From: an uncultured virus (IMG/VR IMGVR_UViG_3300035180_002914)
Taxonomy: Duplodnaviria > Heunggongvirae > Uroviricota > Caudoviricetes
Reading direction: 5' to 3' (one strand)
DNA length: 20,000 bases
Virus record (IMG/VR): IMGVR_UViG_3300035180_002914
This document shows, piece by piece, positions 1,815 to 20,000 of the stretch. A model generated the notes under the pieces. That model was not told where the DNA came from. It was given only the letters and a program-made list of their open reading frames with translations, and ran no database searches. The first letter of the stretch is position 1. Each line of letters starts with the position of its first letter. Position numbers and translations under genes: made by a program.

Positions 1815-3368
1815 ATGTTCAAAATCAATCCAGTTCTAGCAATAGATTCATACAAACTCGGTCATATGTCAATGTACCCAGAAGGTACGACAAAAGTTTA
1901 CTGCAACTTCACTGCAAGAAGTTTTAAACACGCAAGAGGTCTTTTCCCAGACGAACTTCCGTTCTTCAACAACAAAGCTGTTGTATTCGGCATTTCTGCT
2001 GCGTTTCAAGAAATAAACGAGGCGTTTCAAGAAAACTTTTTCAATAGAGACATTAATGATGTACTCAAAGAATTTGATACAGCTACTCGACCATTCATTG
2101 GCGACAACGACAATACGCAGTTGTTGAAAAATATAGAAAACCTGCATAAACTAGGTTATCTTCCGCTTCAAGTAAAAAGTCTTCCGGAAGGCTCTCAAGT
2201 AAAAGAGAATATTCCAATGATGACTATCACTAATACGCATCCAGATTTTGCGTGGCTTCCAAACTATCTTGAAACATTCATTTCAAGCCAAATTTGGAAA
2301 TTGAGTACGGCGGCGACGATAGCTAAAGTGTATAAAAACATTTTTGACTACTTCGCTGATAAAACTGGAACACCTAGAGATTTTACTCTATTTCAAGGAC
2401 ACGATTTTTCAAGTAGAGGTATGAGTGGTTTTGCTGATGCCGCAAGAACAGGTAGTGCGCATCTTACTTCATTTATTGGTACAGATAGTGTGGCTTCAGT
2501 AGAATATGTAAAAAAATACTATAAAGCAAGCGGTCTGATAGGAGCAAGCGTACCCGCCTCGGAGCACAGTGTACTTTGTATGGGAGGAAAAGATACTGAA
2601 ATCGAAACTTTCAGAAGAATTCTTAAAAAATACCCAAATGGCGTCGTTTCGATAGTTTCTGATACTTGGGACTATTGGAATACAATTACTAATATAGCGA
2701 AAGAACTAAAAGAAGAAATTCTCGCTAGAGGTAAAGACAGTCTTGGACTATGTAAAACTGTATTTAGACCTGACTCTGGCGATCCAGTAGATGTTATCTG
2801 TGGGACTAAAAAATATAAAATTGGTAGTATCGACGGACATATAACAACTGATAATATGCCAGAAAATTGGCTTAGATTTGTTTCACCAGAAGAAAAAGGT
2901 TCTATTCACTGCCTTTATAACATATTCGGCGGAACAAAAACCTCAACTGGACACATTCAACTTGATGAACACGTGGGTCTAATCTATGGTGATAGTATCA
3001 CTCCAAATAGAGCGTACAGTATTCTGAAAAAACTTGACGAAAAAGGTTTCGCTAGTGGTAATGTCGTTCTTGGTATAGGTTCTTACACATATCAATTTAT
3101 GACGAGAGACACTCTTGGTTTTGCTATGAAGGCGACTTACGGCGAAATTAACGGAGTTCCTACACCGATTTTCAAAGAGCCGAAAACAGATGCAGGTAAA
3201 AAATCAGCGAAAGGTCTTCTAAGAGTTGATAAAATCGGTGGCGAATATGTTCTTGTCGAAAATCTTACTTCTGACGAAGGCGGAGAACTTAAAGTGATTT
3301 TCAAAGACGGTAATTTTGAAAATCTTCCGGCATTTGATGAAATAAGAGAAAGGCTTGCGAATGCTTAA
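1815..3368 (+). CDS. nadV: Nicotinamide phosphoribosyltransferase (Nampt/NadV) homolog; probable Namat of the phage NARP1 pathway
   Basis: Motifs DSYKLGH, HDFSSRG, SVPASEHS, SIVSDTWD, RPDSGDP, LIYGDSIT, TRDTLGFAMKAT and KKSAKG; CAGGAG RBS. Confidence 0.93.
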   Translation: MFKINPVLAIDSYKLGHMSMYPEGTTKVYCNFTARSFKHARGLFPDELPFFNNKAVVFGISAAFQEINEAFQENFFNRDINDVLKEFDTATRPFIGDNDNTQLLKNIENLHKLGYLPLQVKSLPEGSQVKENIPMMTITNTHPDFAWLPNYLETFISSQIWKLSTAATIAKVYKNIFDYFADKTGTPRDFTLFQGHDFSSRGMSGFADAARTGSAHLTSFIGTDSVASVEYVKKYYKASGLIGASVPASEHSVLCMGGKDTEIETFRRILKKYPNGVVSIVSDTWDYWNTITNIAKELKEEILARGKDSLGLCKTVFRPDSGDPVDVICGTKKYKIGSIDGHITTDNMPENWLRFVSPEEKGSIHCLYNIFGGTKTSTGHIQLDEHVGLIYGDSITPNRAYSILKKLDEKGFASGNVVLGIGSYTYQFMTRDTLGFAMKATYGEINGVPTPIFKEPKTDAGKKSAKGLLRVDKIGGEYVLVENLTSDEGGELKVIFKDGNFENLPAFDEIRERLANA

Positions 3369-4260
3369 TCTTAGACTATTTGCCGTGGAAGAAAACAACG
3401 GAGTAAAACAAATTGATATCAAGTTCTCCACATTTCCTGCTGGAGAAAGGTATGTTTGTCTAGATATGGAAGATTTTAAACCAGAAAAACAAAGAACAGA
3501 ATTTGTTATTTGCTTACTTTCGGCTTCTTCGGTAGCCGTTATGGACTCTCTTCTTGTGGCTAATGCTGTCAGAGAGAATTCTTTTGTAAAGGTAAACATA
3601 ACTCTTGACGCTTCGTATCTTCCATATAGTAGACAGGACAGAGTCTGTAAGGCAGGCGAATCGAATTCTCTTAAAGTGTTTGGTAAGCTTATTGAAACTC
3701 AATTCGATAGAGTAGTTACTAAGGATGTCCATAATCGTTCGGCGTTCGAACAAGCCTTCTCGAATTTTAACGGTTTTGCGCTAAACTATAATGTAGATTT
3801 TAAAAATGACAATTTCATTGAGGCGAAAACCGAAAAAATAAAAAATATTTTCTTTCCGAACGATGGTGAAAAAGTCGTAGTTGTTTCTCCAGATAAAGGC
3901 GCTATAACAAGAGCGACTAGCGCCTCTCAACAACTTGGGCTTGGAGATGATATCGTTGTTTTCGATAAAGTTAGAAATGGTTCATCTGTATCAACAGTTA
4001 TTCGTAATGAATCTATCGAACTTTTGAAATCTGCCAAAACTGTGGTTGTAGTGGATGATATATGCGACGGCGGTCGAACTTTTATATCGCTAGCAGAAGA
4101 GATGAAAGCTTATAACGAAAAAGCGAAATTCGTTTTGATCGTTTCTCACGGAATATTCAGCGCAGGCTTGGACTGTCTTTATGCTTCTTATAGTGAAGTT
4201 TTCTGTCTTTATAACCAATACAATCTTGAAAGACTCCAAAAACTTAAAGAGGGAGAGTAA
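3361..4260 (+). CDS. prs: Ribose-phosphate pyrophosphokinase (PRS) homolog; probable Adps (ADPR-PP synthetase) of NARP1
   Basis: Motifs FPAGE, YLPYSRQDR, DVH, VSPDKGA, VVDDICDGGRTF and SHGIFS. The ATG at 3361 overlaps the end of the Nampt gene. Confidence 0.9.
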   Translation: MLNLRLFAVEENNGVKQIDIKFSTFPAGERYVCLDMEDFKPEKQRTEFVICLLSASSVAVMDSLLVANAVRENSFVKVNITLDASYLPYSRQDRVCKAGESNSLKVFGKLIETQFDRVVTKDVHNRSAFEQAFSNFNGFALNYNVDFKNDNFIEAKTEKIKNIFFPNDGEKVVVVSPDKGAITRATSASQQLGLGDDIVVFDKVRNGSSVSTVIRNESIELLKSAKTVVVVDDICDGGRTFISLAEEMKAYNEKAKFVLIVSHGIFSAGLDCLYASYSEVFCLYNQYNLERLQKLKEGE

Positions 4261-4271
4261 ATCTCTCCTTC
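4249..4271 (+). terminator. Stem-loop at the end of the NAD operon
   Basis: GAGGGAGAG-TAAAT-CTCTCCTTC spans the stop codon; the U-tract is weak. Confidence 0.5.
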
Positions 4272-4359
4272 TCAAATCTTGTATTTACGACGATTTAAAC
4301 TTCGTTTAAGAAATTTTTAGTTATAATTCTAAATCTTAAAAGTCGAGAAAGGACTCAAA

Positions 4360-4545
4360 ATGGCAAGAAATCTAAATATAAATGTGAGATGTAGAATAGC
4401 GCTCGGAAAGCTTAAAAGGCATTTTGGCAATTCAATCCCGACTGAGGCTGAGCTTTCTGAAGTAGCTAGAGAATTTTGTATTAGATACAATCTGCCTGCC
4501 GTTTTTATTGTTTACGCATTTTCTTCAATCGAACACAAAGGTTAA
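4360..4545 (+). CDS. Hypothetical protein
   Basis: 61 aa, AAAGGA RBS, TTTAAG...TATAAT promoter at about 4305-4327. Confidence 0.65.
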   Translation: MARNLNINVRCRIALGKLKRHFGNSIPTEAELSEVAREFCIRYNLPAVFIVYAFSSIEHKG

Positions 4546-4659
4546 ATGTTGGAAATAAACCTGACGAATTATATCAAAAAATTTGTATGTTGTTAAAGAA
4601 GAAATTCAATTTAAGTTTACATTAAACTGAAATCGGATAAAATAATAGAAAAGTTTGAA

Positions 4660-4713
4660 ACGAGGAGACTTTAAGAGTCTCTTCCATCCAGACTTTATGT
4701 CTAAAATCATCGT
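4660..4713 (+). ncRNA. Candidate structured RNA or leader upstream of Ro60 (possibly Y-RNA-like)
   Basis: Hairpins GAGGAGACT-TTAAG-AGTCTCTTC (4662-4684) and AGAC-TTTAT-GTCT (4690-4702), with a possible closing ACGA/TCGT pair. It lies between a -10 TAAAAT (4638-4643) and the RBS. Confidence 0.35.
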
Positions 4714-4730
4714 AAAGGAAAACGAATTAA

Positions 4731-6224
4731 ATGAGCAAATTTAACACAACAGCTAAAGGCAAAAACTCTACTCCGACAGGAGAAAACCTAGCAGGCGGCG
4801 TTTCTTTTGATAGAGATCTTAAATCTGAAGTCGCTTCTGTAGTGCTCAGCTCTATGCTAAACGGTGATCAATACTATATGACAGCAGAAGAAAAAATGTC
4901 GTATATCGATCAACTTGCATCAGAGTGTGCTAAAAACGAAGACACAGCAGTATTCTTCGCTAAAGCTATGGTTTACGCTAGAAATGAAGGTTTCTTGAGA
5001 TCAGTTTCACACCTTATGGCGGTTAATTTAGTAGAAAATGTTAAAGGAAAAGAGTTTGTAAAACCTGCTCTTATTAAAACTTTTATCAGACCAGACGATA
5101 TGACAGAAACTGTTGCTCTGTGGAACTCTAGACATCCTGATGTAATGGTTCCAAACTCTATACAAAGAGCTTGTAAAACTTGCCTTGAAACTAAGTGGGA
5201 CAGGTTTCAATTGAAGAAGTATGAGGGCAAATCGAAAAAAGTAAAACTAAGAGATATTGTTAAGCTTTCTCACCCAAAAGACCCAAACGGTGCGTTTAAA
5301 CAACTAATAGAAGGAACTCTACCAAAAATAGACACCATAGAAAGAAATGTTGCCGCTGGCGAGTCAGCTTCTGAATCAATGAGCAAACTATTGAGAGAAA
5401 ACAGACTACCGTATATGGCAGCTGTAAAAAACATAAGGAACGCTCTCGAATCTGGTTTGTCAAAAGATGATGTTCTTAAATTCTGTGAATTGATAGTGAA
5501 TGATAAATTGAGAGCTAAGTCTAAAATAATGCCATTTAGATTTTGGGATGCATATAGACAAGTTGAAATTTCTAGTGGTATCGATAGATTTACAAAAGAA
5601 CACGTAAAAGAAGCTCTTGAAATAGCTTTTATAGCTGCTACAAAAGACCTTAATATTCTGAAAGAAGGTGAAAGAATAGCTCTTTGTCTGGATGAATCTG
5701 GATCTATGGGTCGTATGTATGACAATAAATCACCGTTTTATCACGGAGCTATTTTGACTTGCGCAATTCACGCTAGCGTAGGAGCTAAAAACTCTATTGT
5801 ATACGGCTGGGACACTGGTTGTAGAGAAATATCTATGATAGCGAATTCTCCGTTCGCAACACTGTCTGGAATGGAAGCTAACAGTGGTGGTACATCAGTA
5901 GAAGCTCCTCTTCAAAAAATGATTCAAGATAAAGTATATGTTGATAAAATTTTGATTTTTACAGACGAACAGTTTTTGTCAGCAAGAGGTTGTAAGAATA
6001 AAAAATTTGATTCAGTTCTAAATGAGTACAAATCTAAAATTAACAAGGATGTACAAGTTATATTTTGGAATTTAGCTGGATATTCTGGAGGAGCACCATA
6101 TAATACCTTTAATGGTAATATATCAGAAATCTCAGGTTATTCTGATAGAATTCTATCTGTTCTTGGAAACCTTTGGGGAGACAAAAGTGCTCTTGTAAGA
6201 GAAATTGAAAAAGTTGAGCTTTGA
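4731..6224 (+). CDS. Ro60/Rsr-like TROVE plus vWA domain RNA-binding protein
   Basis: N-terminal 'ENLAGG', 'YARNEGFLRS', 'RPDDMTE', 'KLRDIVKLSHPK', 'LPYMAAVKNIRN' and 'IMPFRF'; vWA MIDAS 'LDESGSM', 'GGT', 'FTDEQ' and 'FWNL'. Confidence 0.92.
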   Translation: MSKFNTTAKGKNSTPTGENLAGGVSFDRDLKSEVASVVLSSMLNGDQYYMTAEEKMSYIDQLASECAKNEDTAVFFAKAMVYARNEGFLRSVSHLMAVNLVENVKGKEFVKPALIKTFIRPDDMTETVALWNSRHPDVMVPNSIQRACKTCLETKWDRFQLKKYEGKSKKVKLRDIVKLSHPKDPNGAFKQLIEGTLPKIDTIERNVAAGESASESMSKLLRENRLPYMAAVKNIRNALESGLSKDDVLKFCELIVNDKLRAKSKIMPFRFWDAYRQVEISSGIDRFTKEHVKEALEIAFIAATKDLNILKEGERIALCLDESGSMGRMYDNKSPFYHGAILTCAIHASVGAKNSIVYGWDTGCREISMIANSPFATLSGMEANSGGTSVEAPLQKMIQDKVYVDKILIFTDEQFLSARGCKNKKFDSVLNEYKSKINKDVQVIFWNLAGYSGGAPYNTFNGNISEISGYSDRILSVLGNLWGDKSALVREIEKVEL

Positions 6225-6448: not shown

Positions 6449-6559
6449 AACTAACATTTTCTTTTGACTTTGAAATGCTTGTGAAAAATTTTAAAAATTT
6501 AAGATAATTTTAAGATTTAATACAATATAATTTTAATAAGAAAAATGAAGGAGAAAGAA

Positions 6560-6928
6560 ATGGAAATGGAAAAAGTTTTAACTAACGCTATGGAAGCTTA
6601 TAAAGCAGAAGATTATAAAACAGCTCTTGAATTATTCACACAAGCTTCTGAAATGGGAAGTGCTAGAGCTTGTTTTTTACTTGGTCTAATGTATGGTTGG
6701 GGAATAGGTGTTCAAGAAAACAATGTGAAAAGAGTTGAGCTATTCGAAAAAGCTTGTGATTTGGGATGTGGAGAGGCGTGTTATAGGCTTGGTTTTATGT
6801 ATGAATGGGGGATGGGTAATATCGAACAAAACTTTTCTAAAGCGTCAGAGCTGTATGAAAAAGCTTGTAATTTAGGATATAAAGAAAATGATTTTAGCGA
6901 AGAAACAAAAAGATTTTTAAATATTTAA
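6560..6928 (+). CDS. Sel1-like repeat (SLR) protein 1, Hcp-like Cys-rich
   Basis: Repeats 'KACDLG..EAC.RLG.MY..G.G..Q'. The start was moved from 6545 to 6560 because AAGGAG precedes it. Confidence 0.88.
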   Translation: MEMEKVLTNAMEAYKAEDYKTALELFTQASEMGSARACFLLGLMYGWGIGVQENNVKRVELFEKACDLGCGEACYRLGFMYEWGMGNIEQNFSKASELYEKACNLGYKENDFSEETKRFLNI

Positions 6929-6974
6929 TTTTTAAAATAGAATACGTTATAATTATATTGAAAGGGAGAAAAAA

Positions 6975-7664
6975 ATGGAAATAACACTAGAAAATGGTTT
7001 GAAAGCTTATGAAGAAGGAGATTATAAAACTGCCTTTGAATTGTTTACAATGGCTTTTGAAAGCGGAAGTCCTGAAGGTTGTAATTATCTTGGTATTATG
7101 TATGACAATGGAGAGGGTATTGAACAAGACAAATCTAAAGCAGCCGAGTTTTTTGGAAAAGCTTGTGAACTAGGTGATGCTTCAGGATGTTATAACCTTG
7201 GACTAATGTATGAAATTGGAGAAAGTGTAGAACAAGACTACTCTAAAGCAGTAGAGCTATATACAAAAGCATGTGAACTTGGAAATTCATACGGTTGTAA
7301 TAACCTTGGAGTTTTGTATGAGTATGGTAAAGGTGTTCAAAAAGATATTAATAAGGCTGTAGAACTGTATATAAAGGCTTGTGATCTTGGAAATGCTAAA
7401 GGATATTTTAACCTTGGACTTATGTGTGCTAGTGGAGAAGGTGTAGAACAAGACTATTTAAAAGCGGCTGAGTTGTTCGCAAAAGCTTGTGAACTTGGAA
7501 TTGCTGAAGGTTGTAATAATCTTGGCGTAATGTTTGCTAATGGATTAGGTGTTGAACAAGACTACAATAAAGCTGGAGAGCTATTTAAAATGGCTTATGA
7601 GATGGGACACGAAAAAGGTCTTGAATCATACAATGAACTAAAAGAAAATGATTTTATTAAGTAA
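6975..7664 (+). CDS. Sel1-like repeat protein 2
   Basis: About five 36-aa repeats 'GC.NLG.MY..G.GVEQD..KA.E...KAC.LG'; AAGGGAG RBS. Confidence 0.92.
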   Translation: MEITLENGLKAYEEGDYKTAFELFTMAFESGSPEGCNYLGIMYDNGEGIEQDKSKAAEFFGKACELGDASGCYNLGLMYEIGESVEQDYSKAVELYTKACELGNSYGCNNLGVLYEYGKGVQKDINKAVELYIKACDLGNAKGYFNLGLMCASGEGVEQDYLKAAELFAKACELGIAEGCNNLGVMFANGLGVEQDYNKAGELFKMAYEMGHEKGLESYNELKENDFIK

Positions 7665-7687
7665 TAATTAAATTAAAAGGAGATACA

Positions 7688-8395
7688 ATGGAAGACATTT
7701 TTTTATTTTTGATAACAAACGGGTCGAAAATCTGCGAAGACGAAAATGATTTCAAAGAAGTAGCGGAAACATTAACAAAAGCTTGTGATAAAGGAAATGC
7801 TAAAGCGTGTTTCAATCTTGGAATTATGTTTGAATACGGAAAAGGTGTTCAAAAAGACATTCCTAAAGCCATAGAGTTATATACAAAAGCTTCTGAAAAT
7901 GGTAACGTCGAAGCGTGTTTTAGACTAGGAACTATGTATGAAAAAGGTCGATATGTCGAAAAAGATTTTCTTAAAGCGGTAGAACTGTATAAAAAGGCTT
8001 GTGATGGCGGATATGCTCCTGGATGTATCAACCTTGGAGATATGTATCGCTACGGAAAAGGTGTTCAAAAAGACATTTCTAAAACAATAGAACTGTTGGA
8101 AAAATGCTGCGATTTGGGATATGATGACGGATTTTATAGTCTTGGATTTAAGTATTTATATGGGAAAGGCGTTAAACAAGACTACTCGAAAGCTGTAGAG
8201 CTATTCACTAAAGCTTGTGATTTAGGAAGCGCAGGTGCGTGTCTTAAACTTGGCGAAATGTATGAGTGGGGAATGGGAAGCATTGAACAAGACTTATTAA
8301 AAGCTGTCGAGTTTTACAAGAAAGCTTGTGATTTGAATGATCCGTATGGTTGTGATCGCTATTCGGTTTTGATGAAAAATATTTTAGGTAAATGA
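7688..8395 (+). CDS. Sel1-like repeat protein 3
   Basis: About five SLRs; AAGGAG RBS. Confidence 0.92.
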   Translation: MEDIFLFLITNGSKICEDENDFKEVAETLTKACDKGNAKACFNLGIMFEYGKGVQKDIPKAIELYTKASENGNVEACFRLGTMYEKGRYVEKDFLKAVELYKKACDGGYAPGCINLGDMYRYGKGVQKDISKTIELLEKCCDLGYDDGFYSLGFKYLYGKGVKQDYSKAVELFTKACDLGSAGACLKLGEMYEWGMGSIEQDLLKAVEFYKKACDLNDPYGCDRYSVLMKNILGK

Positions 8396-8438
8396 TTCTG
8401 GAAACCAGAAATCTTTACAATAAAATGAAGGAAAAGGT

Positions 8439-9215
8439 GTGAAAAATAAAGAGGATTTAGTATCAAAAGGATTGGAAAATCTTGAAAAAGGTGAATACGA
8501 AACGGCTTTAAAAATGTTTACACAGGCTTGTGATTTAGGAAGCTCTGATGCATATTTTATCCTAGGATATATGTATGACCACGGAGATGGAGTAGAACAA
8601 GACTACTCCAAAGCCGCAGAATTTTACGGGAAGGCTTGCGAAATGGGAGATGCTTCAGGATGCTACAACCTCGGACTAATGTTTGATAATGGGGATGGTG
8701 TTGAACAAGATAAAATAGAAGCAGCAGAGTTGTATAAAAAAGCTTGTGATGGCGGAATTGCTGAAGCTTGTCTAAATCTCGGTGTTATGTATGCTTACGG
8801 AAAAGGCGTAGAACAAGACTATTTGAAAGCGGCGGAGTACTATAAAAAAGCTTGCGATAAGGGAGATGCTGAAGTGTGTCATAGGCTTGGTTCTATGTAT
8901 GAAAACGGAGAAGGCGTTGAACAAGACCTTTCAAAAGCAGTAGAATACTATAAAATAGCTTGCGATAAGGGAGATGCTGAAGTGTGTCATAGGCTTGGTT
9001 CTATGTATGAAAACGGAGAAGGCGTCGAGCAAGACTTATCTAAAGCAATAGAACTGTACGAAAAAGCTTGTGAAGGCAGTTATGCTCCTGGATACAGCAG
9101 TCTTGGACTTATGTATGAAAATGGACGAGGCGTCGAACAAGACCTTTCAAAAGCATTTGAATTGTACGAAAAGGCTTGCGAATTAGGAGATACTTTCGGA
9201 TGTTACAAACTTTGA
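8439..9215 (+). CDS. Sel1-like repeat protein 4
   Basis: About six SLRs; GTG start after an AAGGA RBS. Confidence 0.92.
   Translation: MKNKEDLVSKGLENLEKGEYETALKMFTQACDLGSSDAYFILGYMYDHGDGVEQDYSKAAEFYGKACEMGDASGCYNLGLMFDNGDGVEQDKIEAAELYKKACDGGIAEACLNLGVMYAYGKGVEQDYLKAAEYYKKACDKGDAEVCHRLGSMYENGEGVEQDLSKAVEYYKIACDKGDAEVCHRLGSMYENGEGVEQDLSKAIELYEKACEGSYAPGYSSLGLMYENGRGVEQDLSKAFELYEKACELGDTFGCYKL
8838..9025 (+). repeat. Recent tandem duplication of one 108-bp Sel1 repeat unit
   Basis: 69 bp are identical at 8849-8917 and 8957-9025 (offset exactly 108 bp), extending 5' with one mismatch. Confidence 0.9.
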
Positions 9216-9243
9216 ACAAAAATCTAAGAACAAAGGAGAATTA

Positions 9244-9957
9244 GTGGAAAATATTTTTGTATTTTTAGCGCCTGATGGGTTTAAAGGTTATGACGAAAAC
9301 GAAGAAGATTTAAAATCCGCAGTAAATTCATTATCGAAAGCTTGTGAAGAAGGAAATTCCAAAGCGTGTTATAACCTTGGAATTATGTATGAATACGGAA
9401 AAGGTGTAAAACAAGATCTATTAAAAGCGGCGGAGTTATATAAAAAGGCAGGTGATGGCGGATATGCTAGCGGATATAATAATCTTGGTCTTTTGTATTC
9501 TAACGGAAAAGGAGTTGAGCTAGACTATACGAAAGCTGTAGAGCTATTCAGGAAAGCTTATGAAATGGGAAGTATAGCAAGTTGCAACAACCTTGGAGAT
9601 TTGTATTACTATGGACAAGGCGTTAAACAAGATTTTTCTAAAGCTGAAGAGCTATATTCAAAAGCTTGTGAGGTAGGATACTCTCGTGGGTGTTTCAATC
9701 TTGGTGTTATGTATGAAAACGGTAACGGAGTTCCAAAAGACATTCAAAAAGCAATAGAACTGTATTCAAAAGCTGCTGAAATTGGAAATGCTAATGCGTG
9801 TTATTACCTTGGATTTATGAATGAATATGGTATCGGAGTCCAAAAAGACATAAAAACCGCAATAGAATTCTACAAGAAAGCTTGTGAACTAGGAAGTGCG
9901 GCAGGATGCGAACGCTATTCGAAAGCGAGAAAAATATTTGGGAGTATGTTTGATTAG
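9244..9957 (+). CDS. Sel1-like repeat protein 5
   Basis: About five SLRs; GTG start after AAGGAG. The N-terminus is paralogous to that of the 7688 protein. Confidence 0.92.
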   Translation: MENIFVFLAPDGFKGYDENEEDLKSAVNSLSKACEEGNSKACYNLGIMYEYGKGVKQDLLKAAELYKKAGDGGYASGYNNLGLLYSNGKGVELDYTKAVELFRKAYEMGSIASCNNLGDLYYYGQGVKQDFSKAEELYSKACEVGYSRGCFNLGVMYENGNGVPKDIQKAIELYSKAAEIGNANACYYLGFMNEYGIGVQKDIKTAIEFYKKACELGSAAGCERYSKARKIFGSMFD

Positions 9958-12317: not shown

Positions 12318-13073
12318 TTATTTTCTTGCTGTAGGAAGTACTAGACCTAGTTTATTATCTTTTTGGACTTTAGATAGTTTTGGGAAGTAGTTGATACCAG
12401 ACATTCCTTCAAGCTCAGAGATAGTTATAGTTTTACAGTTACCTGCTGAAGTATTTTCGCAAAGATAGGCTGCTCCTTTTTGTTGTTTTGGACTATAGAC
12501 TACTTTGTATATATGGGTAGGAACAAGAACATTATTTTTACCAATAGCTTTAGGCTTATCAGTTTTAAAGAGTGGACCTGTAATTATATACTCATCACCT
12601 TCTTTAGCTGCTAATAGCCTTGTTTCCTTTTCTATAGCAGACCATATTACAGTATTATTTCTATGATCTTGTGGAACCATATTAGCTAAACTAAAAGACT
12701 CTGCTTGAGTAGCTTCTGATCCCATATCAGCAGAAGGTGTCATATGCCCTCTGTCATAACCTGTTCTTTCATAATCAGATAGTTCAGCTCTTTCTCCAGC
12801 AGAAAGTTTACTTTCAGGATGGAACATATCTTTTCTTGGTATTTTAGCCGATATCTTTTCTTTTGTTAGATGTTCTGCTGACCAAATAGGTGTTTTTGAT
12901 ACACCAGAGTACATTACTACAAAACCTTCAAAACAAAGTTCTTTAGACTTTGTGGCTAGTTTTTGGTCTACTATATCCGGTGCTTGTCCATTAAGATAGT
13001 GTGTTGGACAAGCTGATGTACCTGCTAAAAGTGATATAGCGGTTATAGTTGAAAAAAGAATGTGTTTTAACAT
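12318..13073 (-). CDS. Exported DNA/RNA non-specific endonuclease (NucA/EndoG family)
   Basis: Signal peptide; catalytic 'GYDRGHM', 'ESFSLANMVPQ...NN..IW..IE', 'ITGP' and 'VPTHIYK'; AAGGAG RBS. Confidence 0.93.
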   Translation of the reverse strand: MLKHILFSTITAISLLAGTSACPTHYLNGQAPDIVDQKLATKSKELCFEGFVVMYSGVSKTPIWSAEHLTKEKISAKIPRKDMFHPESKLSAGERAELSDYERTGYDRGHMTPSADMGSEATQAESFSLANMVPQDHRNNTVIWSAIEKETRLLAAKEGDEYIITGPLFKTDKPKAIGKNNVLVPTHIYKVVYSPKQQKGAAYLCENTSAGNCKTITISELEGMSGINYFPKLSKVQKDNKLGLVLPTARK

Positions 13074-13189: not shown

Positions 13190-13294
13190 TTCTATGACTT
13201 ATCATTTCGACTTGTATTATTCTGAAACAACTATATTATTAGCTTCTACTCACAGAAATAAATAAACATCAATTATATCGGAGAGGTATTCTTT

Positions 13295-13891
13295 ATGGGC
13301 GGTAGCGTCGAAACACACGAAAAATTAGATTCTTTACTTGACTCTCTTGATAATCTTAAAACAGAATTAATGCTTGTAATTACACAAAGTAGATCTGAAA
13401 GGGAAATTTCTGAAAAAATCTTGAATATATCAATGAAATATAGAGACATTCCAGAAGTTTTTGAGCTTATAATGTTTTTGAACGGCATTTTAAGTCTAGA
13501 CATTAAAAGTATGAAAGAGTCAATTATTAAAAGTATTGATACTCTTATTATGATTAAAAAGGCGTCAATAAAAAGAATGATAGACTTAGATCACAGAGTG
13601 TTGAAAATAGAAGAAACTATTCAGGATCTGAATGAACAGTATGAAAACCATATAAAAGAAGATGAAGACGATGAAAAGGACGAAAAAGAAGATTCTGAGG
13701 AAAATGTCATCAAGATCTTTGGAGCGAAAATAAACATACTTAAAGTGGCTGTTATTGTACTTTCAGCTTTTATTATTCTTTTTATAGCCTACTCTATTAA
13801 TGAGAAAGCTGCGTCTAAAGCAGTTTCAGCTATTTCAACTACAACAGAAAAAGTAATTCAAGAAAAGAAAGCAGATGATGGAGAAAAATAA
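13295..13891 (+). CDS. Helical/coiled-coil protein with an acidic linker and one C-terminal transmembrane helix
   Basis: GGAGAGG RBS; TM segment 'ILKVAVIVLSAFIILFIAYSI'; TAATG coupling to the next gene. Confidence 0.75.
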   Translation: MGGSVETHEKLDSLLDSLDNLKTELMLVITQSRSEREISEKILNISMKYRDIPEVFELIMFLNGILSLDIKSMKESIIKSIDTLIMIKKASIKRMIDLDHRVLKIEETIQDLNEQYENHIKEDEDDEKDEKEDSEENVIKIFGAKINILKVAVIVLSAFIILFIAYSINEKAASKAVSAISTTTEKVIQEKKADDGEK

Positions 13892-14619
13892 TGTCACTAT
13901 TTGGTTTTAATTTTACATTTTTAAAAAATGAAGCAGAAAACTTTGAGTCAGACGAAAGACTAAGAAAACTTGAAGAAAGAGTCCAAACAAAAAGAAGCTT
14001 TGATGCATATCTAGTAAATGTCAAAGGAAAAGAAATATCCGGAAATGAACATCAAAAAATAATTATAGTAATTGATGATAGTAGTACTATGATACTAAGT
14101 GTAGAAAGAGATTTTAAAAGAATAGCTCAAATAGCTTCTTATCTGAACGGAAATAGTGATGAAGATAAAAATTTCTTAAAGCTAAGAGAAGAAATAAGAA
14201 GAAGGTATCCATCTAAGGAAAAAGAGTTTATTGAATTTCTAAAAAGGTATAAAGAAATTGATTACTCTGTTACTTACTTTGAAACAGAAAGATGCGGCTT
14301 TGAGTTTTTAAAATCATTATCAGAGTATAAAGGTAAAATAGACTATGCTATTGTGGATATTACATTCGGTAGCCTTCTTATAGATGAAAATGAAAAGATG
14401 GTTTCTCTTGATGGTATAGATGTAGCAGTGAAAATAAGAGAAAGATATCCAGATGCAAAAATTCTCTTTAATACAGGTTATGATCTATCAGATCCAGATA
14501 ACTCACAAGCTCATAAAATAAAAATACTAGGTGAGAAAATAGGAAACTTCAGATACACATTAAAAAGTATTAATCCTTATGAAAGATTATGTGATATTGT
14601 TGAGATGTTATCAGAATAA
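13891..14619 (+). CDS. Stand-alone response-regulator receiver protein with a large insertion and no evident output domain
   Basis: 'IIIVIDDS', phospho-acceptor 'YAIVDI', 'DGIDVAVKIRERYPDAKILFNTG' and 'YTLKS'. Confidence 0.82.
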   Translation: MSLFGFNFTFLKNEAENFESDERLRKLEERVQTKRSFDAYLVNVKGKEISGNEHQKIIIVIDDSSTMILSVERDFKRIAQIASYLNGNSDEDKNFLKLREEIRRRYPSKEKEFIEFLKRYKEIDYSVTYFETERCGFEFLKSLSEYKGKIDYAIVDITFGSLLIDENEKMVSLDGIDVAVKIRERYPDAKILFNTGYDLSDPDNSQAHKIKILGEKIGNFRYTLKSINPYERLCDIVEMLSE

Positions 14620-15686
14620 TGAAAAACTTTTTACATATTCTTTACGGAAAACTATTTAAGATAAAGAAGTTTTCTTCACTCTTTATAGTGAATTTTTTAA
14701 TTTTCGCTAGTATACAGATAGCTTATACTGGAGTTCAATTAGTTTATGATATCAATAAACAATATTCTTCTAGAGAACAAAAAACAGTAGATTACCATAA
14801 ATTTGATAGGAATATTATAATCAATTCTTTATGGTTTTTTGCTATATTTTCCTTCTTTTTTATTGGTAATATTTTCTATTACTTGCGCCTTATTCAAAAA
14901 ATAAGAAAAAAAGATTTGATGTTATTTGTTCAGGAGAAGTCTAATATATCAAGAATAGTCACTTTAATGATGAGTGAAAACCTTCATCATCAAATGAAAA
15001 CTCCTTTAGCTGGAATAAGTTCTGAAATACTTTATATACAAGAACTTTTAGATCCTAAAAATAATCCAAATTCTTGTAGAAAATGTCCTATAGTTAAAGA
15101 TACAAGTTTAGCTCTTCAAAGTATAGGTAATGCTTTAAATAATATCAAAATGCTTCACGATGTAGTTGAATCAGTTAAGCTTTCAAATAATGTAAAATAT
15201 TCTGATAAAGATAAAACTATTGGAGAGATACTTTTAGACGCTATAAGTATAATAAAAAGTTCTGAAGCAAGACTACATCTATTTAATATAGAAATAACAG
15301 AAGAACTTAATAGATATATGTTAGTTAATATGACAAACGAAAATTTTCTTGATGTTATAATATCACACTTAAAAAATTCTATTGAGGCTGGTGCTTCAAG
15401 AATTCTGATAACAAGTAATAATGAATTACATAACAGTATACTTAAAATTTATATTATAGATAATGGCTCTGGGATAGACAAAAAGAAAATACCTTTTATT
15501 TATGATTTAGACTTTTCCATAGAAAAATCAGAAATAAAGAAAATTTCAGGAACTAAGTTATTCTTAGCGAAAGCAATAGTAAAACAATTTCCTGGTTGTG
15601 ATGACAAATTAAAAAGTACATCTTCAAGAGGAGCTACTTTTGAAATAACCGTTCCGGCTAGGTTAATAAAAGAAGAGGAATTTTAA
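14619..15686 (+). CDS. Membrane sensor histidine kinase A (degenerate G2 box)
   Basis: Two TM helices; H box 'NLHHQMKTPL', N box 'HLKNSIEA', G1 'IDNGSGI' and F box 'DLDFS'. The G2 box reads 'SGTKL'. Confidence 0.87.
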   Translation: MKNFLHILYGKLFKIKKFSSLFIVNFLIFASIQIAYTGVQLVYDINKQYSSREQKTVDYHKFDRNIIINSLWFFAIFSFFFIGNIFYYLRLIQKIRKKDLMLFVQEKSNISRIVTLMMSENLHHQMKTPLAGISSEILYIQELLDPKNNPNSCRKCPIVKDTSLALQSIGNALNNIKMLHDVVESVKLSNNVKYSDKDKTIGEILLDAISIIKSSEARLHLFNIEITEELNRYMLVNMTNENFLDVIISHLKNSIEAGASRILITSNNELHNSILKIYIIDNGSGIDKKKIPFIYDLDFSIEKSEIKKISGTKLFLAKAIVKQFPGCDDKLKSTSSRGATFEITVPARLIKEEEF

Positions 15687-16864
15687 TGGCAGTTTTAATT
15701 AAAGATATGTTGTTTAAAGAGATGTTAATTCTTTTCTTATTATTAGTATCAGCAGTATTTTCTATGTTTAGTGTAACATTTATATCTCAACATATAGAAA
15801 ATCAAGAAAAGATAATTAAAAAAAATATAGAAGAGTACGGTGAGTTTGATATATCACATACTTGTAGAATAACGGATTGCAATGAAATAATCATTAAACC
15901 GTCTTCCAGTTTTAAACTAGGAAAGAACGGAATAATGGAAGCGAATAAAGAGAAAACAACTAGAATCGAATTGTCATCATTTTCTTTGTCTAAAAACGGT
16001 ATAGAAGGTTTGATTAAAGTTGAAGATGTGGTGTTCTTTATTCCTATTTCAAACGGTGTGAAATTTTCATTACTTATAGCGTTTACTTTTGCTATCTTTT
16101 TTCTTATCGGCTCTTATATTTTTTTGTATTATGTCAGAAATAGAATAAAAGAAAAAGTTGTGTTTATGAATCAGAAAAAAGAGATGTTAGATGCTCAACT
16201 AGCTAAAATTATAGGCAAAAATATTTTTCACGAAATTAAAACTCCTATATCTTCAATAGCTTATGAACTTAGTATAATAGAAGAAGAATTAGAACAATGT
16301 GGGTCTAATTCTAGTAGTACACAAAAAAGCTTAGAAAATATTAAAACAAATCTTAGTCTAATAGAAAATATTGCTTATAGAACAAGGGCTGACAAAATAA
16401 ACAGGAAGAAAAACCAGAACAATAATAATGTTTACGATATACTTGAAGAGTGTTTTACTAATATTCGCTTCACAGATAAGAAATATACTTATAGTATAGA
16501 CGATATGTTTAAAACATTCTTTTTAGATACAAGTAAGCTTTCAAAAGAAGACTTCCAGAATGTTATTGTAAACCACACTAAAAATTCATTTGAAGCAGAC
16601 GCCGAAACTATTATATTCAAGTTTGTTCTTGCCGAAAATAAGTTTCTTGTTATTGATTTGATAGATGATGGTAATGGAATACCTAAATCTCTAATAAATA
16701 AGGTATACGAGCTAGACTTTAGTACCAAATCTGGCGATTCTGGTTCAAGAGGAATAGGACTTTACTTGTGTAGAGAAATTCTTAGAAATGCTGGCGGTGA
16801 TGATAGAATTTTAGAAACATCAAAGAATGGTACTACTATAGAATTGAAAATTCCAATAATTTAA
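15686..16864 (+). CDS. Membrane sensor histidine kinase B
   Basis: Two TM helices flank a roughly 90-aa periplasmic region; 'IFHEIKTPI', 'HTKNSFEA', 'DDGNGIP', 'DFSTK' and 'RGIGLYL'. Confidence 0.92.
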   Translation: MAVLIKDMLFKEMLILFLLLVSAVFSMFSVTFISQHIENQEKIIKKNIEEYGEFDISHTCRITDCNEIIIKPSSSFKLGKNGIMEANKEKTTRIELSSFSLSKNGIEGLIKVEDVVFFIPISNGVKFSLLIAFTFAIFFLIGSYIFLYYVRNRIKEKVVFMNQKKEMLDAQLAKIIGKNIFHEIKTPISSIAYELSIIEEELEQCGSNSSSTQKSLENIKTNLSLIENIAYRTRADKINRKKNQNNNNVYDILEECFTNIRFTDKKYTYSIDDMFKTFFLDTSKLSKEDFQNVIVNHTKNSFEADAETIIFKFVLAENKFLVIDLIDDGNGIPKSLINKVYELDFSTKSGDSGSRGIGLYLCREILRNAGGDDRILETSKNGTTIELKIPII

Positions 16865-16872
16865 GAGTCAAA

Positions 16873-17130
16873 ATGAAAAAGACAGTTTTATTGCTACTGA
16901 TTGTTACTTCTTGTTTTAGTTTCGATTGTTTAAATGAGCAAGAGAGAAAAACACGAGAAGAAAGGTATTGTTGTGAAAAAATTAGACAACTTAATACTGA
17001 TTTTAGAGCAAAAACTCTTGCTGGTTGGAAAAGAGAAATAAGAAAGGGAGAAGTGAAACCAGATATGGAAGGTTGTATTGAATTATATTTTGCCAGAAGA
17101 AATAGTAACTCAATAGGCGGTACTCTATGA
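16873..17130 (+). CDS. Small exported Cys-containing protein
   Basis: Sec signal MKKTVLLLLIVTSCFS; four Cys in the mature part; ATGA overlap with the next gene. Confidence 0.7.
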   Translation: MKKTVLLLLIVTSCFSFDCLNEQERKTREERYCCEKIRQLNTDFRAKTLAGWKREIRKGEVKPDMEGCIELYFARRNSNSIGGTL

Positions 17131-18299
17131 GAAAAATATTTCTTATTTCTGCTCTTTCTGTCTTAGCTTTAGCTGGTAATTTTCACTTTGAAAATGAGCT
17201 TGATATTACTTACAGTGATATGTCATCAAGCCAAGAACAAAGCAAAGAAAATCAAAAAACTCTTAGAAGTTTCTTTAGTTATGAAACAAAAGATTCAAGG
17301 TTTACTGCTGAAACTATTGCCCAATATGGAAGTGATAAGAATGACCAATGGAATAATAAAAATGGTGGAAAAGAAGGCGGTATGTCTATTGAAAGCCTTA
17401 TGTATGAGAGAAAACTCACAGACGAAATTTCTATTTCTGGCGGAGTAATTCCGTTTACAAACGATAATGACTTTTTCTTTGATGATGGTTTTATAGAAGA
17501 AAATGGTAATCCTATACTAATTTCATTACCACTTCAATCTGTATTTTTGTCTTACAAGAAATCAATAGGAGACTTTGATACAGTAAGTAAACTAGGTTAT
17601 GGCATATATGATTATTTCAAGCTACCACATAGAGACACACAATATTATGAAAATTCAAAATCTGACGGTATTTTCTTTATACAAAGCTGGGATGATGGAA
17701 TAAACAAAATACAGATTGATGCTTATATGGCAAAAATAAAGTATCTAGAAAAAGATGAAGCAACATTAAAACTAGCTAGTATTCTCTATAAAACAGTAGA
17801 CCCTTGGATAGATGCAAAATGGTTTATAAGTGCTGGGTATAGCGAATTTGACCAAAAGACTTCTGATATTAAAAATACTATATTAGACGGAGAAGGTACA
17901 CCAAGATCTTTACCTGATATAATACCTGATGATTTTAGTTTTGAAAACACTAAAAAATCAGGGAAGTTTTTTTCTATCGGAGCAAGTAAAAGATTTGATA
18001 AACTGACTACAAGAATCTGTGCTATATGGATGTCTAAGAATTGGGTTTCTCTAGCATCAACAACAGATACAGATAGTCCTTTTTTCTATGAAAATAGAGG
18101 AAGAAGTATAGCAGGAAAAATTTCGTATGATATAACAAAAAATTTAAGTGTGTCTTTTGAAGATGTGTATATTAAAAAGGATTGGACTAGTAGGATTGGT
18201 TCTTCAATAAATCCTGTACCTAGTGGAAATAATTCTGATTTGCCAAATGATTACAAGTACAAACATATAAGTACTTTTCAATTGTCATATACTTTTTAA
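17127..18299 (+). CDS. Outer-membrane beta-barrel (porin-like) protein
   Basis: Signal peptide ending ALA, alternating aromatic/polar strands, and a C-terminal BAM-type beta-signal 'FQLSYTF'. Confidence 0.75.
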   Translation: MRKIFLISALSVLALAGNFHFENELDITYSDMSSSQEQSKENQKTLRSFFSYETKDSRFTAETIAQYGSDKNDQWNNKNGGKEGGMSIESLMYERKLTDEISISGGVIPFTNDNDFFFDDGFIEENGNPILISLPLQSVFLSYKKSIGDFDTVSKLGYGIYDYFKLPHRDTQYYENSKSDGIFFIQSWDDGINKIQIDAYMAKIKYLEKDEATLKLASILYKTVDPWIDAKWFISAGYSEFDQKTSDIKNTILDGEGTPRSLPDIIPDDFSFENTKKSGKFFSIGASKRFDKLTTRICAIWMSKNWVSLASTTDTDSPFFYENRGRSIAGKISYDITKNLSVSFEDVYIKKDWTSRIGSSINPVPSGNNSDLPNDYKYKHISTFQLSYTF

Positions 18300-19831: not shown

Positions 19832-19937
19832 GCGAATGATTTCTGTAGTATATAACTATTAGGATATAATAGATTTATCTGTTTGTGCGTAAAACGCCGT
19901 CCTTCAGGACGGCGATATAAGCACATCAAATTAACAT

Positions 19938-19975
19938 TTAACAAATTGCTATCGACTAACTATAATAAATATAAT
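19938..19975 (+). promoter_or_regulatory. Promoter(s) directly upstream of the second omegaRNA copy
   Basis: TTAACA-N17-TATAAT (19938-19966) and TTGCTA-N18-TATAAT (19946-19975); AATAAATA also occurs at 19964-19971. Confidence 0.6.
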
Positions 19976-19978
19976 CAT

Positions 19979-20000
19979 AGTCGTTTGGGCTGGGAACCAG
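19979..20000 (+). ncRNA. 5' start of a second omegaRNA-like RNA (truncated by the window edge)
   Basis: 20/22 identity to 729-750. The two differences (A742/G19992 and T748/C19998) form one compensatory base pair. Confidence 0.65.

Follow-up and report, generated by a model that had tools for sequence, protein, structure and literature searches.

A phage-borne kinase–receiver module with a predicted kinase–phosphatase pair and a possible role in lysis timing

Can a phage carry a two-component signalling circuit of its own, and what would such a circuit control? The question is raised by a 20,000-nucleotide stretch of DNA from an uncultured virus (IMG/VR record IMGVR_UViG_3300035180_002914; the whole stretch is called the window below), in which six co-oriented genes encode a membrane protein (MEM), a receiver (REC), two histidine kinases (HK-A and HK-B), a small exported protein (SEC) and an outer-membrane barrel (BAR). 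A sequence-only reading had proposed that a phage installs here a circuit spanning the envelope, from porin through exported protein and kinase pair to receiver and membrane effector. The layout behind that proposal was confirmed: all six open reading frames (ORFs) were verified on the + strand, with lengths of 198, 242, 355, 392, 85 and 390 amino acids (aa), and direct reading gave TAATG overlaps at 13891, 14619 and 15686, ATGA at 17127, an 8-bp gap between HK-B and SEC (16865-16872) and a GGAG/GAGG site upstream of 13295. The features, with one or two transmembrane (TM) segments where indicated, are as follows.

13257..13264, + strand: promoter candidate, AATAAATA, 38 nt upstream of the first start codon
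13295..13891, + strand: MEM, membrane protein and presumed output partner; predicted cytoplasmic helical bundle with coiled coil, one C-terminal TM helix
13891..14619, + strand: REC, stand-alone receiver; conserved receiver residues, and a receiver as best PDB profile match
14619..15686, + strand: HK-A, two-TM histidine-kinase paralogue; predicted to be kinase-dead and phosphatase-competent
15686..16864, + strand: HK-B, two-TM HisKA-type sensor kinase; full kinase residue set
16873..17130, + strand: SEC, small exported protein; family motif, and a signal peptide recognised by eye
17127..18299, + strand: BAR, porin-type outer-membrane beta-barrel; predicted model and fold search, ends in Phe

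The reading that we favour is of a phage-owned two-component switch, made late and sited at the inner membrane, in which HK-A would oppose HK-B and lysis timing is the probable output; as a whole we hold it at a little under an even chance. Its parts differ in strength, and the firmest is the module itself. Scans with single window proteins or with barrel alignments as queries retrieved no relatives. The first relative was retrieved with an alignment of the two kinases, and further scans extended the set to 26 other distinct contigs, 15 of them IMG/VR records, counted after merging repeats (L009=L018, L012=L026=L031, L022=L038 and L024=L035). On these the order MEM-REC-HK is conserved, often with SEC and BAR. 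That first relative, the IMG/VR contig L001, carries MEM-REC-HK-SEC-BAR beside T4-type portal, prohead protease and primase genes, and portal, prohead protease, gp23, tail, DNA polymerase and RNA polymerase genes were found as neighbours across the relatives. All five genes were present in 8 contigs, MEM-REC-HK-SEC in 1, MEM-REC-HK alone in 8, and REC-HK-SEC without MEM (barrel present or not) in 4; in the remaining 5 the module is cut by the contig end. Wherever both places are sequenced, receiver and kinase occur together (23 of 23 contigs).

Four of the carriers are complete genomes: G002 (193.7 kb), whose T4-type gp23 matches Vibrio phage Va1-like and Campylobacter CP220-like phages at 38-40%, G004 (96.5 kb), G007 (161 kb), with a multisubunit RNA polymerase encoded on its twin L032, and G008 (223 kb). 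The module is thus common to at least three unrelated phage types. SEC was not detectable in G002, G007 or G008, being present in one of the four complete genomes, and the barrel was not detectable in G002 and was found in one of the two complete genomes tested. The porin and the exported protein are thus optional parts of the module, and the chain of the sequence-only reading, from porin to exported protein to kinase, is not obligatory. MEM, too, is missing beside the receiver in one clade. What is supported of the proposed circuit is a phage-borne two-component module; the envelope-spanning chain is not supported in the form proposed, and the second kinase is more likely a kinase-dead twin.

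Searches outside the relatives yielded little. The module family had no match among 50,697 phage records, 72,556 plasmids gave only generic partial kinase matches (22-36%), so that neither a cultured phage nor a plasmid was seen to carry the module, and no NCBI source was found for the 10 family kinases looked up. One scan of bacterial chromosomes returned two generic Flavobacterium kinases; its patterns miss the usual family words HHELNT and INHIKN, so that this insensitive scan is weak evidence of absence from bacteria. The module order kept on 26 contigs with phage neighbours and the kinases that form their own clade speak against a near-identical host operon. Taken together, and with the chromosome test counted as weak, the evidence supports a module that is phage-borne and phage-specific rather than an operon lately copied from a host. 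A literature search, which covered listings and selected passages, brought up no account of it.

Whether the window itself is viral is a separate matter. Pfam and PHROG scans found no capsid, portal or terminase gene among its genes, so that we infer its viral nature. The phage context claimed earlier holds for the neighbours, among them genes that large myoviruses typically carry (NAMPT, PRPP synthetase, TROVE, PhoH-PIN, homing endonuclease and Dam), but not for virion genes. The homing endonuclease, Dam, NAMPT and PRPP synthetase match PHROGs, and PhoH-PIN aligns over 96-97% of its length with proteins of the same Va1-like and CP220-like phages, at 32-34% identity. The window PhoH had no match in 5 carrier records, which says nothing on kinship. 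Chromosomal or plasmid DNA, or an operon recently captured from a host, would agree with the missing virion hallmark, with five Sel1 genes and insertion sequence (IS) elements in the window, with an operon GC content of 0.286 against 0.333 in the rest of the window, and with chromosome-scan patterns that would miss most module-family members. We consider such an origin very improbable in view of the PhoH-PIN and PHROG matches; moreover, every close relative found sits on a phage or phage-like contig, and the top database kinases reach at most about 30% identity over at least half of HK-B. The window therefore belongs, with high confidence, to a phage, and the porin in its operon points to a Gram-negative host cell. 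The exact operon proteins were found on 6 contigs, the longest of 133,131 bp, and the stretch was detected in 4 sediment or microbial-mat sequencing runs, of which 3 may be where it came from.

The two kinases were then compared with each other and with the family. Both have a HATPase_c domain above the Pfam cut-off, a HisKA domain below it and two hydrophobic segments, and they align at 27% identity. In HK-B the HATPase_c match (E 5.6e-13, 49.7 bits versus a cut-off of 26.4) is accompanied by an H box, H182-E-I-K-T186-P, with the phospho-acceptor His, an acidic H+1 residue and Thr at H+4, by complete ATP-binding boxes (N296, N300; D327-x-G-x-G with G329 and G331; R355-G-x-G with G356 and G358) and by a periplasmic domain of about 95 aa with the C-x4-C pair of the family. 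HK-B keeps every one of the residues that do not vary among 20 relatives (the His, the H+1 Glu, the two N-box Asn and the G2 glycines); judged by its residues, it is an intact HisKA-type sensor kinase. On L024 (complete genome G002), REC and HK are separated by an ABM-monooxygenase gene and a gene for a 198-aa protein (8650-9607); this protein has a hydrophobic segment at each end and is perhaps a replacement sensor partner. The kinase of L013 (2-1047) is split into two ORFs, as is the barrel of L022 (10865-11998), by frameshift or assembly error.

HK-A presents a different picture. Its motifs are H-Q-M-K-T-P, an N box S-H-L-K-N and a G2 box I-S-G-T-K-L, and it departs at three positions that do not vary in 20 of 20 relatives: the H+1 Glu is Gln, the Asn equivalent to N296 is Ser, and the Gly equivalent to G358 is Lys. 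The first two positions are connected, the H+1 Glu pairing with the first N-box Asn. The His, the H+4 Thr, the KN and the DxGxG are retained, and a periplasmic loop of about 29 aa replaces the C-x4-C sensor domain. HK-A thus lacks the acidic H+1 residue, the intact G2 box and the first N-box Asn of an active kinase, and keeps the Thr or Asn at H+4 that goes with phosphatase activity. In the passages available on CrdS, the corresponding H+1 Glu-to-Gln change (E372Q) abolished kinase activity and spared phosphatase activity, for which the H+4 residue was needed (PMC3510030); among cellular proteins, RetS is an earlier example of a partner without kinase activity that acts by dephosphorylation and inhibition (PMC5992135). 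HK-A is more likely a kinase-dead, phosphatase-competent twin of HK-B. Of the two paralogous two-TM kinases announced by the sequence-only reading, both are therefore present with their HATPase_c domains, but the full kinase residue set is found in HK-B alone.

A second kinase gene was found in 0 of 21 relatives in which the region is fully visible. The YxLDFS F box, which the sequence-only reading had singled out, is indeed shared by HK-A and HK-B and is confined to them; the relatives carry F-x-P-N-F-S. In a tree from which 2 of 11 intended outgroup kinases were dropped because their H-box pattern was unmatched, 22 family kinases formed one clade (support 99/98) apart from 9 cellular kinases. 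HK-A and HK-B group together in it on long branches, with a support of just 90/88. A duplication within this lineage fits these data and is not proved by them.

The same observations could be taken to mean that HK-A is a decaying duplicate without a role, in which case the window would hold an ordinary five-gene member of the family and a spare gene. The unshared second kinase would agree with decay, and so would the length of the HK-A branch (1.89, the longest among the family rows), the lost sensor domain and a sequence cluster with HK-A as its one member. Yet the frame is intact with TAATG coupling on both sides, and it is kinase-specific positions that have changed, with His, H+4 Thr, KN and DxGxG all preserved. 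Over 755 nt of HK-A, the sequence of a related contig shows 111 differences (about 85% identity) and zero gaps, a modest sign of coding constraint, and at just 27% identity to HK-B the duplicate must be old, which also counts against decay. We regard decay as quite unlikely. What is new with this window, within a two-component system of otherwise familiar kind, is probably a pair of kinase genes that divide the work between a kinase and a probable phosphatase.

The partner of these kinases was examined next. In REC the acidic pair (DD62-63), D156 and T195 are invariant among 24 relatives and K224 is at least 90% conserved. The Pfam Response_reg match stays below the cut-off (15.1 bits versus 30.2, E 0.027), and 0 of 5 carrier genomes match PF00072, the protein being too divergent for the model; the best PDB profile match is nevertheless a receiver (E 0.0043), and two close relatives are labelled CheY-like by their source. 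REC has an N-terminal extension of about 55 aa, a 36-aa lineage-specific insertion and no output domain, so that the earlier description as a receiver without output is upheld. As it has no DNA-binding domain, it should act by binding protein. In most relatives a cysteine-rich stretch, possibly a metal or redox site, precedes the receiver (L001 9130-9813, L034 and L036); it is missing from the window REC, which has the 36-aa insertion instead.

Timing was approached through the DNA upstream of the module. The AATAAATA that had been noted upstream of the operon is present by direct reading and differs by one mismatch, at -38, from TATAAATA, which we take to be the T4 late promoter consensus. 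Within 60 nt upstream of the first gene of the module, TATAAATA was found at 11 of 23 loci against 0.3 expected (24 of 291 for other ORFs), and ATAAATA occurs at the matching position in 15 of 23 loci, the window included, against 0.74 expected. Not included in this count are L014 and L016, which nearly duplicate L007 and L010, and L013 and L023, which have no upstream DNA. Across the window ATAAATA is not enriched (9 found, 13.1 expected), and it gains its weight from its position in the relatives rather than from the window count. Relatedness among the loci and the AT-richness of intergenic DNA make the nominal P value too favourable, but the motif clearly keeps a fixed position. Sites resembling sigma-70 promoters were at chance level (37 versus 34.5 expected), and no terminator was found for the operon. 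Among the relatives the late-promoter motif is a feature of the T4-like carriers. The window AATAAATA is probably a T4-type late promoter, and the module is apparently made late in infection.

Pfam assigned no family to the other three proteins of the operon, MEM, SEC and BAR. MEM has a single C-terminal TM helix (about 137-157), matched by one C-terminal hydrophobic segment in all 20 aligned members, and a predicted model (pLDDT 81.8) with a cytoplasmic N-terminal helical bundle and a coiled coil. PHROG, NCBIfam and BFVD gave no family or significant match either, and the fold matches are to generic helical bundles alone (best Z 8.7). An HPt identity was considered and rejected: the common FH His is missing in the window protein and several relatives, and HPt matches (Z 7.4-7.5) are at background. 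A predicted complex of REC and MEM scored 0.00, which counts neither for nor against their contact.

SEC follows the kinase in 13 related contigs and, in an alignment of 15, carries the motif K-x3-GW-x-R...Y; a PDB search gave no match at E < 0.1. It had been described as an exported Cys protein of 85 aa, of which the small exported protein remains; the cysteines vary across the alignment, and a conserved cysteine or a lipoprotein was accordingly rejected. In the periplasm, SEC is a candidate partner for the sensor domain of the kinase. The beta-barrel assignment of BAR was borne out by a model of about 16 long strands (pLDDT 73.9), by Foldseek matches to OmpF, AlgE and Campylobacter MOMP (E about 1e-10 to 1e-11) and by the C-terminal Phe. 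BAR falls with atlas porin and DUF3373 clusters and matches the barrel of phage L001 with 99.5% probability; 12 relatives were found among 1.84 billion representatives, with an NCBI source for none of the 10 looked up.

From these parts a course of signalling may be drawn. The porin would let a small ligand in from outside, and HK-B would sense a periplasmic cue via its C-x4-C domain, with SEC helping; it would then autophosphorylate on H182 and pass the phosphate to D156 of REC. HK-A, with its H+4 Thr kept, would counter HK-B as a phosphatase of phosphorylated REC (REC~P) and possibly also form inhibitory heterodimers with it, as RetS does with GacS, its short loop suggesting a membrane cue or constitutive action that sets a threshold. 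For the protein-binding REC the natural candidate partner is the co-translated, membrane-anchored MEM, and the most likely output would be control over when lysis occurs, with phosphorylation inhibiting it.

How well does the gene neighbourhood agree with this output? In L032 and L033 a GTA-type 3-TM holin lies directly upstream of the module and co-oriented with it, and a GH108 endolysin is divergent; in the complete genome G004 the upstream genes in the same direction are one with DUF5675 and one for an unassigned 3-TM membrane protein. MEM immediately precedes REC in 20 of the 24 related contigs that show REC. Several observations weigh against the proposed switch. Named lysis genes adjoin the module in just 2 of 26 relatives, of one lineage, and the window copy has none, being flanked by a divergent nuclease upstream and a BppU-like gene downstream; with lysis genes so scarce, the output is inferred. 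The remaining neighbours differ from locus to locus (ClpX, primase/RNase H, tail fibres, ribonucleotide reductase), 4 contigs of one clade have no MEM beside REC, and the window itself lacks a virion hallmark gene. Pfam, PHROG, BFVD and fold searches brought out no resemblance of MEM, in sequence or in fold, to a known holin; holins are too diverse for absent homology to exclude this identity.

The scarcity of lysis genes would also suit the same phage switch directed at the host, with REC~P (in the manner of CheY or CpdR) or MEM acting late in infection on motility, proteolysis, envelope remodelling or superinfection exclusion. In most carriers, the window among them, no lysis gene adjoins the module, a ClpX-like gene divergently adjoins it in four loci (with Pfam support on one), and MEM is missing in the four contigs mentioned. 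On the other hand, the position of MEM before REC holds across unrelated phage types and points to a phage-internal partner, the ClpX adjacency may reflect shared gene order in one clade, and in L032 and L033 a holin gene precedes the module. A host target is in our judgement unlikely; lysis timing leads over it as the output of the module, with a probability somewhat below one half. Among the purposes that the sequence-only reading had listed, lysis timing is the best supported, though indirectly.

Three kinds of neighbour may be recorded here in their own right. The ClpX-like genes lie at L019 7437-8675 (zf-C4_ClpX and AAA, Pfam run on this locus only), L020 7395-8570, L021 5146-6297 and L022 7039-8217, and REC might serve as an adaptor in the manner of CpdR. 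A conserved two-TM protein of 113-118 aa and of no known family, holin-like by shape only, follows the module at L006 4819-5175, L007 12834-13187, L010 9188-9529 and L014 12819-13172. The divergent gene directly before MEM in the window (12318-13073, - strand) encodes a secreted-type non-specific nuclease; L034 has one in the same divergent position (8487-9131, - strand; about 30% identical). The arrangement, seen in these 2 loci only, recalls DNA as a periplasmic signal in T4 lysis inhibition.

A further explanation takes porin, exported protein and sensor as a unit for uptake and sensing of a nutrient or solute, comparable to the auxiliary metabolism of phage phoR and pstS. BAR does have a general-porin fold, PhoH and NAD-salvage genes are present in the window, and phages carry phoR and Pst genes according to passages of PMC10987575. 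However, no DNA-binding regulator or transporter appears in any locus map, SEC seems too small for a solute-binding protein, complete genomes have the core module without porin and SEC, and the promoter candidate is of the late type; this explanation is very improbable. A bolder form of the lysis reading remains tentative and, as we judge it, on the doubtful side: several unrelated lytic phage types would run a His-Asp lysis clock, in which a porin-admitted cue sets the level of REC~P that gates a MEM of class IIIb-like type. The outside cue would be phage or lysate products entering via the phage porin and read with the periplasmic partner, and MEM would be a holin or antiholin. In the lineage of the window, the two functions of the sensor would have come to lie in separate proteins, a kinase that senses the ligand and a dedicated membrane phosphatase, and this push-pull pair would integrate two signals.

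Elsewhere in the window, the NAMPT, PRPP synthetase and TROVE/Ro60-like genes are clustered at 1815-6224 (NAD salvage, RNA repair). Five tandem Sel1-repeat genes without signal peptides, unusual in a phage, occupy 6545-9957. A TnpB-type gene at the left end (1-811) is split over two frames, and a right-end repeat (about 19880-20000) joins position 764 in contigs, which suggests several copies of IS200/IS605 type.

Among known systems, HK853-RR468, KinA/B-Spo0F, DivJ/PleC-DivK and CheA-CheY function with stand-alone receivers. The module shares with these HisKA systems the HExxT, N, G1 and G2 boxes and a receiver with DD/D/T/K and no output domain. Unlike them, it has motifs of its own (ITENxHHELNTP, HxKNSxEA, RGNGMYL), is apparently phage-restricted, and has a probable late promoter, a co-translated membrane partner and an optional exported protein and porin; its proteins fall far below every NCBIfam equivalog cut-off. 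An active kinase beside a kinase-dead relative that keeps the H-box Thr for phosphatase activity, as predicted for the window, is met in GacS/RetS (PMC5992135) and in CrdS E372Q (PMC3510030). RetS, in those passages, keeps HExxT, is without G boxes and has receiver domains, whereas HK-A keeps G1, has Gln at H+1 and no receiver, and is an adjacent, phage-borne paralogue. What the window contributes is a natural division of labour between a kinase and a probable phosphatase, with a prediction that rests on single residues, the H+1 Glu and the H+4 Thr.

Late control located in the envelope, as proposed for the module, is found in T4 lysis inhibition (T/RI/RIII) and in phiKZ gp142/gp143. In the passages of PMC12894885, the phiKZ class IIIb holin has the topology also predicted for MEM (a large cytoplasmic N domain, one TM and a short tail), and a cytoplasmic regulator is encoded next to it, as a gene for a cytoplasmic protein adjoins MEM. 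T4 and phiKZ use direct holin-antiholin binding, not His-Asp phosphotransfer (PMC12894885), and MEM matches neither in sequence or fold. Two-component parts occur in other phages too: phoR/phoB/phoU auxiliary metabolic genes (AMGs) are host-like single genes (PMC10987575), two-component genes are listed for phages of ammonia oxidisers (bioRxiv 10.64898/2026.05.02.722434), and the cREC of jumbo phages is a receiver never linked to a kinase (PMC7824862). The passages of these sources contain no conserved, phage-only operon of kinase, receiver and membrane protein. With the present module, lysis timing in lytic phages without T4 r genes would become testable with four purified proteins. Phages are known to sense their neighbours through peptides, host autoinducers and direct holin-antiholin contact; a late, phage-only kinase-receiver module in unrelated large phages would, if the proposed reading is true, be a further route.

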